A DNA stretch of 64,000 nucleotides, taken from the NCBI GenBank assembly GCA_964016885.1, contig OZ024752.1, positions 3,472,001 through 3,536,000 of the forward strand, in the 5' to 3' direction. This DNA comes from Eledone cirrhosa (Eukaryota). The position numbers were made by a program, and so were the translations under genes. Below the pieces are notes generated by a model. That model saw nothing but the letters and a program-made list of their open reading frames with translations, made no database searches and was not told the origin of the DNA. This document shows positions 1 to 63,299 of this stretch, piece after piece; position 1 is the first letter of the stretch, and each line of letters begins with the position of its first letter.

Positions 1-2285
1 GCCTCGGTCAAGATTTTGCATATTTCTATCCCTACTCTGTATTTACCCAATAATTGAGTACTCATATCATTAGTGGTCTCCTCGTTCTCAACTCCACATT
101 CTCCTCTCTCCCTCTCTCTCTCTCTCTCTACTATATATGGGGAGAGGAAATATGTGATTGGCACATTTTGTTATCCATCCCACAGCATGAAATGCGATGT
201 TTACCTAAGCAGGATTTGAATTCAGTACTATGCGAGTCGTAAATAAACATCACAATGAGTTGTGTCCGACTCTCTACCGAATCTGCCAATTCACTACCCT
301 ACATGGTAGTGTAATTTACAGAAGGCCACATAACAATTGATTGGAGAAAAAAATGGAAGACATAAAGAAGGGCATAAATCTTTACAAATCTATGATCAAT
401 ACTTGAAGAGAATATATTAGAAAACTGAGGAAGTAAAGTGTAAAAAAAGACCAAAATCCGTCATGACATGCATGGAGATGCAAAACAGAGAAAAGATTTG
501 ATGTCTAGAATATGCAAATCATGCAATAAACTGTTGATATTTGAGAAGCTCATGGTAATGTTCAATCTGTGTTTGCAGACATCTAATAATTATTCCTTTC
601 TTAATATGCATGTTGTAAAACTGTCATTAATTTATGTATTAAAGAAGAAATACATATTATGTGTTTGTTACCACATTATATCAGTTTTGTCTATGACCTT
701 CTTGAATGTCAACCATTTATTACGTACTATTTGAATATAACTGCTTTCTCACATTCTACACCGTGTGTATGTCACTGCATTCTCCGACATTCTTAATGGT
801 TTGGGTGTCATTTACAGTTTACTGCTATACTCAAAGTTTTTCAGTTCTATAAGTGGTTTTTATTGCAACTGTGTTCAGATACTGAATCGTCAATGTTCCA
901 TACAACTTGCAATGCTGACGTAAACACATATTCACTTACTTATGCACAGATCGAAACACACGTACTTATATATATATATATATATATATATATATATATA
1001 TATATATATATATATATATATATATGTATGTTTGTATGTATATCAGGGTTTCGATTAAGAAGGTGGAGTACGGGTGTAGCCGACTGTGAGATTTCTATAA
1101 AGGAAGATAGAGACATATGCATGAAATTGAGTAATTAATGTTCGATTTGGAGCTAAATATGGACTTCAAAAGAGAAGCACATTAACAGAGCGATGTGGAG
1201 CTGAGAGAGATGAATCAAACAAAGTGTATGATGTTTGATCTATGGTAAACAGCAGGTTGAGTAAGAGGAAAGGAAGTAAAGCTATTAAATATGAGGAAAC
1301 TGGTGATGGTTTCCTTCAACAATAAATCAGTTCAATAACCTCTAAAAATTGCAATACGTTAAGCAGAACTGTATTGTAGAAGCAACGCTGAATACTTCCT
1401 ATTTTCAGAAAATGAATGAGAATAAAACTGAGTGTCTGGATATATTTGTGAAGTTTACACCTATCCTTTACATCGTTCTTCATTTAAACTTCCATAATGT
1501 ATTCTGTCACCAAACATGAAACATATATTCTACTAAAACTAGGTTGTCAATACGTCTATGTGGTTATAGAGTTCAATTTACAAACTCCCCTTCCTGTGTT
1601 CGATTCTGCTACGCAGACAAAAGCTTGTGGATTAAATTTAGGAGGAGAATTTGCTTAAGCGCGTGCGTTCTCTCTCTCTCGCTCTCTCTTTCTCTCTCTC
1701 TCTCTCTCTATATATATATATATATATATGTATATATATTTGTGTGTGTGTGTAAATTGATATTTATATGTAGCTATTATAGTTCCAGAGACGACAGGAA
1801 AACTATTATCTTTAGTCCGATCCGGCAGCTATATATATATACGACCCGTGATACGTTTGGTCACGTTCATTTCAAAATATTTTCAAAATATCTTTTAAAA
1901 ATCAATTAAAAGTATTTTTTGTTATTATTAGAATGTACTCAGACATGTATATAATGTGAAATGAAACTGGAAGGCCTATATATGTGTATGTATGTATATA
2001 TATAAATGAACCGACCACGCTAATTCCTAAGCTGCGCACCTTCATGAAATTTCACCATAGCATTTACTGAAATTTCGTAATATATGCTATCTATAATTGT
2101 AGGGGGACAGTGCCTGAAGTTTCACTTCATTGTTGGTCTTTAAAATCAGCCGTTAGTAAATAGAGCAATGACTAATGCCAGTCAGACCATGTCCATTAGT
2201 TCGGTTTCCAAGATACAGCTACTACGTTTTCTAACATCAACTTATTTTATTATTACTGTAGTATGTACGACACTGAAGTGACATT

Positions 2286-2480
2286 ATCCGTAGAGCTTCG
2301 GGCAACATGCTTTGTGGCATAGAGTTACGTCCCGTTACGTTCTGATTTCAAATCCCGCCGAGGTTAGTTTTGCCTTTCATCCTTACGGGCTCGAAAAACA
2401 AAGTGGCATTAATGCACTGGTTTCGATTTAATCGATGTTTCTCTCCCTTAAAACTGATGGCTTTGTACCTCAATTAGAAA
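2286..2480 (+). mobile_element. tRNA-derived SINE family 1 copy
   Basis: B-box-like 'gatttcaaatcccgccgagg' followed by 'tttgcctttcatccttacggg', shared with about 8 other copies in the window. Confidence 0.75.
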
Positions 2481-3898
2481 CCATTATAATTGTAGTGTGC
2501 TAAATTAGCTGCTATTTCTATAAAATAAAGGCTGCCAAATTGGCTCGGGCATATGTGTTTGTTAGTACTATTGATATGTGTTACACGTATATGTTAATAT
2601 GCATGTATTTTGGCACGCGGGCTTGCAGTGCTATGTAGGGTGTGACAGTGGTTTGTTCTATTGTGTTTCAATATGTACTTGCATGTCTCATAGAGCATAT
2701 GTGAATATGCATGCTGTATTATTTGTCTTTGTGTACGTGTATAACTTGTTTTTGTGTGTGTAGGCATGTAGGCAGCTGTTTGTGAAACAAAAGAAATTGT
2801 TTGTGTGCGTGAGCAGATGTGTCTCCAGATATATATTTATTCATGTCTGCATGTGTTTGATTGTGTGTGAGTGTGTATGTTTGTGCTTTCTCTCGGTGCA
2901 TCTGTATGTCCTTTATGTAAGTAGAGCTGTGTGCACGCAGTTAACCAGTTTATATGTATGAATATGATGTATGTGCATGCATTTGTGAACCTATATGTAT
3001 TCATGTGTGTGCATGTATTTGAATGTGTGAGTATGTTCAGAGCTTTGTCTATATGCATGAATATGCTCTTTTTGTGTTTGGCTTTGTAGATAGCAGTGTG
3101 TGAGGCTAGATATGATGTTCTGTGTGTGCGTGTGTTTATTGTGCGGGAACAGATGTATGTACACATATATATTCATGAGTGTGCATGCGCCTGTTCGAAT
3201 GTATATGTGATAATTTATGACTGAAAATTTGTGTGAAAGTGAATGTAATGTATGTGCCTGTTTGTGTAGAAAACAGATAGATGGTGATAGAGAGGGTAAG
3301 GGAATGACAGCGAAAGAGAACGAATGGGGAGGAAGCGTTTATGTATTTGTGAATATCTGCTTGTGTGTGTGTGAATATGTAAAATGGTCGGCCTGATTCA
3401 ATGTATATTTGTTGTTGGTTGTGTATATATGTTTATGTGAGTATATGTCTTTATGTATATATAGAAGTGGTTGTGATTTTTTTCTGTATATGTGCTTAGG
3501 TGTGATTGTGTGTAAATGTGTGCATGTGCGTGTTCATGTGTGAGTATAATTATGATTATATTTGTTTCATTTCTTTTTACTTTCTAAAACTTTGGTTCCA
3601 GAAAATGACTTTTGGTTTAAAATTCAGCAAAGCATAAATATTATATTTTCTTTAAATAATTTTTTTCAAATATTTTTTTCTTCTCTCCTTCTATAGACTT
3701 TAACTATATCATTAATTCAATGTTATCTAATTAACGTTTAAAATCTTTAAAACTTTAAAAAATTTCTTAAAATCAAACGCTTTAATTAAATTTCTATGAA
3801 AAAGCATCCATCCTCACATAATGACGAACTAGTCGCTGAGATTACTCTTTTCTTCGAACTTCCACATGAAATTCTTTCTTCTTGTATGCATTGTTGTC

Positions 3899-3994
3899 GT
3901 TATTATTATTATTATTATTATTATTATTATTATTATTATTATTATTATTATTGTTATTGTTATTATTATTATTGTTATTATTATTATTATTATT
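3899..3994. repeat. (TTA)n microsatellite
   Basis: direct reading. Confidence 0.95.
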
Positions 3995-62545: not shown

Positions 62546-63082
62546 TTTTGGTGGTTTTTTTTAGGTGTGGCTTTTTTTGTTTTTCTGTTTTTTTGGTCTT
62601 TTTGGGGTTTCTTTGTTTTTTTGTTTTTTTGTGAATGTGTCTGTTGATTTGGCATATTGTTGATTAGTTTAAGAGAAGTTCGAAGATAATAGTAAGATAT
62701 GCACTCAGTATTTTGAATCTGTCTGCAGAATTCCCTAGACCTTTGTCACTTAGCAGAACTTAATGACTTTAGCTTTTAAAGAATCTCCCTTTTCTTTAAT
62801 TCTATCGAGCATGAATGACCCCCCACTGATTTTATAGACATCTGCTAGCTTAAGAGAAACTTATTGACAAGGAATGGTATGCCATCCGGAACTTGTTTAT
62901 AGATTTCTGTCTGCCTTTGTTACTCTAAAAACATAAATAAATATAAATTAACTATAGCTATGTAGAATTAGCCTTTAATGAATTCCCTTCTCTATCAACC
63001 AATGACCTGCACCCATCCCACTCCCCACCCTCTCCTACCACCTGTAGAGACCTATAAATACCATATTTATTTTTTGATACCC

Positions 63083-63133
63083 AGATTCCTGATGATTTCT
63101 AATGAATGAAACAGTTCTAGTCCTGTAGAATCT
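63083..63133 (+). ncRNA. Type-I HHR in the PLE-B pLTR (mirror copy at 57967-58017, - strand)
   Basis: agattc-CTGATGA-tttc(taat)gaat-GAAAC-ag(ttctagtc)ct-GTA-gaatct. Confidence 0.82.
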
Positions 63134-63299
63134 CTTCTATATTAAAACTATTATACTCTGCTATGTATTGAGTACCTTACTTACTGTGGTTACCTCCGAT
63201 TCAACCCGGAATAACGTATATATATATATATATATATATACACACACACATACACACACACGTACACACACGCACTCACACACATACATATATGTATAT

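Follow-up and report, generated by a model that had tools for sequence, protein, structure and literature searches.

Two questions about Penelope-like elements (PLEs) are open in the field: how their reverse transcriptases (RTs), which form the sister group of telomerase, select a template and a site at which to begin, and for what reason the tail of a PLE insertion is one-sided. Among the closest described systems is PAc, the Poseidon element of Anolis, whose RT, in the one in vitro study, initiates within the RNA at two positions that delimit the tail, requires RNA 3' of the start (to +172), and extends both nicked target strands (Frangieh et al., 2024, PMC11167929); that study names an "AC-rich stem loop" at the start site, and no conserved determinant, covariation or paired signal. 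For another clade of PLEs, Hydra, the main text of Craig et al. (2021, PMC8557442) attributes the tail to endonuclease resolution and contains neither the word hairpin nor stem-loop. Retrozymes, which are non-coding, hammerhead-bearing tandem units, have been proposed to be mobilised by PLEs (PMC7229834; bioRxiv 10.64898/2026.07.22.740005); the accessible parts of these reports name no recognition signal, and the second calls the mechanism open. Here we describe a small bulged hairpin from a 64,000-nt stretch of the Eledone cirrhosa genome (GenBank assembly GCA_964016885.1, contig OZ024752.1, positions 3,472,001 to 3,536,000 of the forward strand; hereafter the window, with coordinates counted from its first letter). 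Sequence comparison identifies this hairpin as a conserved tail motif of Hydra-clade PLEs beyond this genome, and we propose, with a probability of roughly 70%, that the Hydra-clade RT-endonuclease docks on its RNA at this hairpin, the tail being the distance between two docking sites.

The window lies in a 3.0-Gb genome that is rich in microsatellites, and contains PLEs of two types, PLE-A and PLE-B, whose proteins have no significant alignment to one another. The PLE-B open reading frame (ORF; 58370..59965, + strand) is truncated at its 5' end and encodes, in a single frame, an RT followed by a GIY-YIG endonuclease at the C terminus, with YRDD and YIG motifs; 155 relatives share this layout. 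A Pfam search with the ORF gave no match. Its translation has a CxCx5C linker, no CCHH motif, and CxxC and CxH motifs around a conserved E and N; its pseudo-long terminal repeat (pLTR) has a hammerhead and is inserted into (TA)n, as is characteristic of the Hydra clade. The N terminus, where the Hydra clade has RWK and DKT motifs, is missing from the truncated window copy; a read-through copy of PLE-B has RWR (by eye), and relatives have RW and DKT. By the defining motifs of the clade, PLE-B appears to belong to Hydra, and in the available text of PMC8557442 the Hydra clade shares with it the RT, the CxCx5C linker, the C-terminal GIY-YIG, the hammerhead, the (TA)n target and the one-sided tail, with tails of 30-40 nt as compared with mostly 45-120 nt here. 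PLE-B is young, its best genomic copies being 99-100% identical. A genome-wide protein search returned PLE-B copies only; the other Hydra families of this genome were taken from a 780-kb sample. PLE-A (ORF 23038-25269; RT and GIY-YIG by Pfam; CX4CxxC linker) may, by its linker motif alone, be of the Neptune/Nematis type.

We refer to the first hairpin after the hammerhead as H1 and the second as H2, and to the tail-less and tailed ends of insertions as J1 and J2. The PLE-B pLTR with its tail (62717..63216, +) ends at J2 against (TA)n, and within it a type I hammerhead (63084..63132, +; cut at ~63127, read by eye) is followed, 27 nt past the cut, by H1 (63155..63173, +), with the main J1 3 nt 5' of H1. 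This hammerhead was not among the 150 of 303 Rfam matches listed for the window, all of which were microRNA models, mostly on simple repeats. The motif can be written RYUC-helix-loop-helix-UH-GARY, then RCUNU: a lower helix with the consensus pairs G-C, C-G, U-A and C-G, an upper helix whose first pair is Watson-Crick in 80/83 instances, a variable loop, and a 3' bulge that is UU in 60 instances, UC in 12 and UA in 11. The 3' flank is ACUNU, with U at +5, a position not used in selecting instances, in 80/83; the 5' flank is A/U-rich, with positions -8 to -5 at least 85% A/T. The bulge was initially described as two nucleotides, TT or TC; two nucleotides hold in most families, while the composition is better given as U followed by U, C or A, with a single U in one autonomous family.

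The hairpin was first picked out in a sequence-only reading of the window, made by a model, whose 13 main instances all lie where it placed them and on the strands it gave; 12 were recovered by a formal descriptor, and the other, which has a loop of ~60 nt (19119..19199, -), was confirmed by direct reading of the sequence. Besides those of PLE-B and the 19119 family, whose tail-less arm lies near 19541-19603 (+; gap 4), H1 occurs twice in the short family FAM2 (57849..57872, +, in the element 57784-57920; and 50852..50875, +, an ATTC/GAAT variant in a two-armed insertion, 50728-50923, with a tail-less arm at 50728-50784, -), twice in FAM36, a non-coding family with a ~520-bp tandem unit (45948..45971, +; and 20884..20907, +, with a tail-less inverted arm at 20609-20658), twice, with long loops, in FAM33 (33807..33849 and 32811..32853, both -), twice in FAM72 (43865..43889, +, with a tail-less arm at 43681-43777, -, gap 5; and 35182..35208, +), once in FAM27 downstream of a hammerhead (28840..28859, -), once in a single-copy family (12109..12135, +), and once in a separate family inserted in a (TA)n run inside a FAM33 tail (33627..33652, +). 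Four weaker cases had also been listed. Those at 34..59 (+), behind a hammerhead-like fold, and at 5281..5305 (+; FAM17, with a degenerate upper helix, a TA bulge and a tail-less relative at 42986-43036, -) are degenerate copies in the right context, and those at 7992..8011 and 55764..55783, the second of them degenerate, are on the minus strand, in old PLE-B-like tails. The nesting at 33490-33724 places one hairpin-bearing family in the (TA)n of another family's tail, so that the same target has been reused. In the two-armed insertion that has the 19119 hairpin in its tail, the turn is a near-perfect 277-bp palindrome (19265-19541).

The descriptor matches the window 18 times, whereas 20 local dinucleotide shuffles have 2-11 matches each, 5.35 on average; the test is circular because the descriptor was derived from the window. 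The enrichment over shuffles nonetheless holds in independent DNA: 400 kb from elsewhere in the genome contain 25 ACTC/GAGT hairpins against 1.4 in shuffles, 6 GCTC/GAGC against 0.8, and 3 GTTC/GAAC against 0.6. The ATTC/GAAT form showed no enrichment in the same 400 kb (3 against 3.8) and was rejected as a family variant. When all 16 bulge dinucleotides were compared across 780 kb, enrichment was seen only for TT (44 against 15.7), TC (19 against 4.7) and TA (19 against 8.3). A covariance model has 67 matches in the 780 kb, about one per 12 kb, with lower helices ACTC/GAGT in 41, GCTC/GAGC in 17 and GTTC/GAAC in 3; 63 of the 67 have a (TA)n run 15-110 nt after the hairpin, as compared with 11.5% for a similar span in the background. 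We also searched for inverted insertions with a one-sided tail while ignoring the motif. Nine of the 14 rows obtained outside the window have the hairpin, strict or variant: strict in five, with a 1-nt bulge in three (two loci), and degenerate in one. The remaining rows comprise one that is unclear, one of PLE-A type without the motif, and three spurious repeats. The PLE-A tail in the window (26449..26535, +), which served as a negative control from a non-Hydra element, also lacks the motif, and the claimed absence from PLE-A/A2 tails is borne out by the covariance model, which has no match there, by folding and by the motif-free search (L081). A 1-nt-bulge look-alike antisense to the PLE-A ORF, near 24732, was taken as chance. 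On the minus strand of locus L101, at ~4700-4920, each unit of a ~74-bp tandem repeat has an ATTC-7bp-loop-7bp-TC-GAAT hairpin, without (TA)n context.

Conservation was assessed in 95 Hydra loci (66 sequence clusters) from marine metagenomes and contaminated metagenome-assembled genomes (MAGs), hereafter the foreign loci. Among their 67 hammerhead-like matches, 39 have a hairpin 38-71 nt past the cut site, 12 reach (TA)n first, 6 leave the contig, 2 are coding, and 8 have no model match; thus, H1 stands behind 39 of the 47 assessable hammerheads. Eleven hits in the foreign loci fell inside coding sequence, mostly reflecting tblastn extension into 5' untranslated regions, although L119:2209 appears truly internal. 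The motif is distributed over the entire RT tree, a quick tree of the retrieved relatives without named reference RTs. Of six published Hydra consensus sequences, three, from coral and sea cucumber, have a hairpin that is clear by eye; it is partial in two of the others and unseen in one. Exact 9-mers of the motif's 3' half occur seven times in the supplement of PMC8557442, four of them at Hydra ends; the other three are inside Naiad/Chlamys bodies, where no matching 5' arm was seen, and as a test of restriction to the clade the count is weak. Viral contigs yielded no Hydra relatives. In the Eledone genome, the autonomous Hydra families L060, and L062 and L065 with a 1-nt bulge, have the hairpin, as do non-coding families such as FAM36. 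The families had been called unrelated, which holds for their body sequences and not for their origin: several are autonomous Hydra elements (L060, L062, L065), the rest look like non-coding partners, and all carriers probably descend from Hydra pLTRs. Eighteen of the Hydra loci (L186-L203) are in records labelled as bacterial MAGs or symbiont genomes, and look like animal host contamination. In L111, L117, L183 and L184, which form one RT subclade, a third, smaller look-alike ending in GAGTAG lies within the first 30 nt after the hammerhead cut, before H1; it is also seen by eye in Hydra-1_Amil.

The junction had been placed 5-15 nt from the motif; counted from the final base matched to the element, the gap to the hairpin is in fact mostly 3-6 nt. 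The main gap accounts for 21/28 tail-less ends in PLE-B (3 nt), 16/20 in FAM2 (5 nt) and 8/11 in FAM17 (4 nt), and for 2/2, 2/2, 2/3 and 4/8 in the other four of the seven families, where it is 4-5 nt (FAM36, FAM72, the 19119 family and half of FAM43). The inverted tail-less PLE-B arm of the window (57963..58367, -) ends at a minor site 12 nt before H1 (5/28 ends). Tail-less ends of this genome's families always have 2-4 nt of TA microhomology, and the gap is kept despite other TAT/ATA sites close by, nearby TA sites being mostly ignored. By contrast, the distance from the hammerhead cut to H1 is 38-71 nt (27 in PLE-B), and that from H1 to H2 is 53-83 nt (118 in FAM36). The hairpin therefore behaves as a ruler: its distance to the end is constant, whereas the hammerhead and inter-hairpin distances vary widely.

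The sequence-only reading missed that the hairpin is normally doubled and that it marks both ends of the tail. The foreign loci contain 32 H1-H2 pairs, 53-83 nt apart, and H2, in tandem or read-through units, mostly precedes the estimated start of the ORF by 6-40 nt (22 of 25). In the Eledone genome, H2 is seen in read-through copies of four families, FAM10, FAM29, FAM33 and FAM36, whose tailed ends are 2-7 nt before H2. Two of these hairpins are in the window: 46066..46086 (+) in FAM36, with tailed copies ending ~4 nt before it, and 33406..33423 (-) in FAM33, with a 3-bp lower helix and a terminal mismatch, one tailed copy ending 4 nt before it. Of 21 rows of truncated foreign copies, 13 end 3-6 nt before H1 or H2, two end at 1 nt (TA-ambiguous) and one at 12 nt, and five reflect divergence between families; the tailed ends of L123/L124/L201, L128, L187 and L191 stop 3-4 nt short of H2. 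Two-armed loci have one J1 end and one J2 end in 17/17 cases for FAM2 (by eye, among 24 rows) and 14/14 for PLE-B, and a FAM2 insertion at 13833..13901 comprises an inverted body from J1 and only the last 12 nt of the tail, at the J2 end. The one-sided tail was known already; its link to paired hairpins is new. A tandem copy of an autonomous Hydra element, L060:3260-3560, presents in order a hammerhead, H1, the tail, H2 (loop of ~65 nt) and a start codon. At ~1835-1900 in L191, and likewise in the published Hydra-1_Ajap consensus, the 5' end of a copy is at the first bases of H1 right after (TA)n, which fits an RNA, circular or tandem, being copied over one unit length until its start site is reached again. 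The hammerhead-like fold of FAM2 is long in stem III and non-canonical in its core (57784-57843 and 50787-50843; L033, L040, L088), and most FAM2 copies turn back or stop within this fold. Since these copies end upstream of the predicted cut site, their template would be uncut or circular RNA.

Covariation was tested on instances picked by the lower helix and bulge alone, leaving the upper helix out of the selection. Upper pairs 1-3 were paired in 75/84, 59/84 and 54/75 instances, which none of 2000 shuffles reached for any of the pairs. With one H1 for each of 26 families, the counts were 26/26, 23/26 and 19/24, against 19.6, 12.9 and 10.5 expected, and were reached by 0, 0 and 2 of 5000 shuffles. 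Two further alignments, A2 (47 of 80 foreign instances, hand-chosen, and 8 from the window) and the model-fitted A3, lean toward structure in their pair counts, and neither was relied on. Lower-helix swaps comprise ACTC/GAGT, GCTC/GAGC and GTTC/GAAC in this genome, and TCTC/GAGA and GCAC/GTGC elsewhere; the sister RTs L160 and L168 (support 99) have TCTC/GAGA in both hairpins. The upper helix covaries across 26 families, and the lower helix varies rarely, but on both strands.

Folding of the sense strand is favoured by these sequences, though not proven, because G-U pairs outnumber A-C pairs, clearly only where helix positions are required to be flanked (10 against 2). Alternatively, the signal could act in DNA, with the hairpin or inverted repeat, in single-stranded or extruded form within a transposition intermediate, directing the GIY-YIG cut to the TA-rich stretch 3-6 nt upstream, and J1 and J2 being resolution cuts. 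The attribution of the tail to endonuclease-mediated resolution in the available text of PMC8557442 would agree with this, as would earlier work cited in PMC11167929, in which recognition of plasmid DNA by the endonuclease depended on the tail, and the A/T-richness of positions -8 to -5; moreover, G-T pairs are tolerated in single-stranded DNA as well. Duplex recognition at a fixed spacing is ruled out, however, because the insert between the lower-helix arms ranges from 4 to >60 nt, and with the wobble bias toward one strand and the finding in vitro that tail ends of a Poseidon element coincide with RT start sites on RNA, we consider a DNA-level signal unlikely. The hairpin might also be an inherited pLTR remnant that serves stability, hammerhead folding or promoter activity and has no positioning role, insertions ending near it by TA-rich microhomology. 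The probable common descent of its carriers, the near-invariant lower helix and the closeness of hammerheads are what such a remnant would predict; compensatory changes across families whose RTs are ~40% identical, a spacing that is constant to the ends and not to the hammerhead, and the neglect of nearby TA sites make it very improbable.

From the structure, conservation, doubling and spacing of the hairpin, we infer the following docking and priming steps. The RT-endonuclease would bind the hairpin and nick (TA)n; the 3' end at the nick would anneal, through 2-4 nt, to the UA-rich sequence immediately 5' of the hairpin, and copying would proceed toward the 5' end of the RNA, so that the hairpin used would be absent from the copy. 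Two protein molecules, one at each hairpin, would extend opposite target strands, and the two cDNAs, joined head to head, would form an inverted insertion that is tailed on one side. H2 would be contained only in tandem, read-through or circular RNAs. Non-coding families would be mobilised in trans, since they retain the same signal. The predicted structure of a Hydra protein (predicted local distance difference test score, 93) has TERT as its closest match (3du5, E 2.7e-8), and the model does not reveal an RNA-binding surface; no solved structure matches the protein by sequence or profile, and a homodimer prediction for residues 1-500, made without an alignment, was uninformative (score 0.01). 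The more general proposition, on which we regard the odds as about even, is of a two-hairpin ruler with the tail as its footprint: a pair of RT-endonuclease molecules, each at a hairpin of its own, would start synthesis a fixed 3-6 nt upstream, on opposite strands of a single target cut; the geometry of a 3'-bulged hairpin immediately behind the start may hold in other PLE clades with other sequences; and the 25-nt hairpin would be a portable signal through which hundreds of thousands of non-coding copies are mobilised here.

Several observations weigh against the docking model. Covariation in the upper helix of H2 is unconvincing (20/20, 10/20 and 11/16 paired; 237, 315 and 167 of 5000 shuffles). 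Read-through copies of PLE-B (6 rows), youngest of the families here, have no canonical H2; what follows 42 of its 52 tailed ends, at 7 nt, is no more than a GCAC/GTGC stem of 4 bp closed by a 5-nt loop. Minor ends occur at gaps of 7, 11 and 12, a script placed only 1/4 of FAM36 tailed ends at gap 4, the rest being read by eye, and seven of the PLE-B two-armed rows come from loci chosen for having a tail. Both ends are in TA-rich sequence, which would equally be expected under an endonuclease model. If the flanking filter is dropped, the excess of G-U over A-C is only 15 to 12. Eight of the 47 assessable hammerheads have no model match, two of these eight being variants by eye. Lastly, the hairpins are marginally stable (z-scores of +0.17 to -2.59 for 11 motif-bearing tail regions) and are not always in the minimum-energy fold of the tail region, which is expected of a protein-bound motif, yet is also a caution.

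Some of these points could be accommodated if H1 alone recruits a protein or dimer, the second start being set by a family-specific tail stem and TA microhomology, with H2 an accessory duplicate or related to translation. PLE-B looks like such a case, having no canonical H2 and yet a sharp J2 at the base of a stem in its tail, and the weak upper helix of H2 and its position just before the ORF start point the same way. We nonetheless find single-site recruitment distinctly unlikely, given the tailed ends 3-4 nt before H2 in foreign loci and 2-7 nt before it in four families here, the retention of H2 in non-coding FAM36, and the L160/L168 clade, in which both hairpins have changed together. We prefer docking at paired hairpins. 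The original suggestion of a cis element that positions a PLE-B-type RT is supported by covariation, the 3-6 nt spacing, restriction to Hydra and conservation in other animals; its description as epsilon-like fits poorly, since synthesis would start 5' of the hairpin and outside it, the 3' strand carries the 2-nt bulge, and target DNA would serve as primer.

A named element of 20-30 nt with invariant positions and a nucleotide-level spacing rule makes the start-site question testable with few mutants. It also serves diagnostically, allowing non-coding repeats and retrozymes to be assigned to Hydra RTs. An internal-initiation signal that is itself uncopied is of interest for RNA-templated gene insertion; if the two-hairpin ruler is correct, a 25-nt hairpin would turn any RNA into a template on which target-primed reverse transcription starts internally and independently of homology.

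In stringent long interspersed nuclear elements (LINEs), the hairpin lies upstream of a start at the 3' terminus, and every insertion contains a copy of it. The Hydra hairpin differs in that it would lie downstream of an internal start, would not be copied by the RT using it, and is normally doubled; it is shared by autonomous elements (L060, L065, PLE-B) and non-coding FAM36, with tail-less ends stopping 3-6 nt before H1 and tailed ends lacking H2. In both systems, a small bulged hairpin is common to autonomous elements and non-coding partners, and for UnaL2 and its short interspersed nuclear element (SINE) partner UnaSINE1, the accessible text describes the 3' tail stem-loop as required for mobilisation (PMC1636434, PMC4176376). 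The LINE/SINE tail stem-loop is thus the best functional analogy, and the Hydra hairpin is not a member of that class. The hepadnavirus epsilon element is a bulged stem-loop bound by the RT, whose bulge is the template for protein priming and which packages the RNA. Like epsilon, the Hydra hairpin is a bulged stem-loop that would fix the start of synthesis via the RT; however, ends map outside it and are joined to (TA)n target DNA, as for DNA priming, and it is not an analogue of hepatitis B virus epsilon in mechanism. In telomerase RNA, an internal template is positioned by structure that lies beyond the part being copied. The Hydra system would resemble this, and its modelled RT is closest to TERT, but it involves no repeat synthesis, and the kinship is that of the modelled protein.

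The likeness to PAc is the internal start at two sites that bound the tail, although PAc belongs to another PLE clade. In the PAc template printed in PMC11167929 we see, by eye only, a hairpin of 5 and 4 bp with a 3-nt 3' bulge at ~+121 to +147, behind the start at 111-118, which differs in sequence from the Hydra motif. FAM36 fits the animal non-LTR retrozymes as described in the accessible parts of PMC7229834 and bioRxiv 10.64898/2026.07.22.740005. An Rfam search of 10 foreign loci holding the hairpin gave two hammerheads and three microsatellite matches, with E up to 5, and no hairpin family. No description of the motif was found in literature searches confined to openly available text, with figure images, Repbase annotations, journals under subscription and the supplements of preprints outside their reach. 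The PLE-A tail and the A2 tail (51620-51697, -) have a common GTTTCRACACAC stretch 4-6 nt past the tail-less end; by eye, GTTTCRACACAC resembles the AC-rich start region printed for PAc, and it may be a counterpart signal in a non-Hydra clade.

Elsewhere in the window, broken frames at 10024-11070 (-) encode what we take to be Helitron-like helicase/Rep peptides. An abundant SINE-like repeat of ~180 bp, unrelated to the hairpin, occurs at 2279-2433, 6043-6206, 15330-15506 and 31782-31967, with further copies at 48347-48525, 53432-53530 and 63305-63452.

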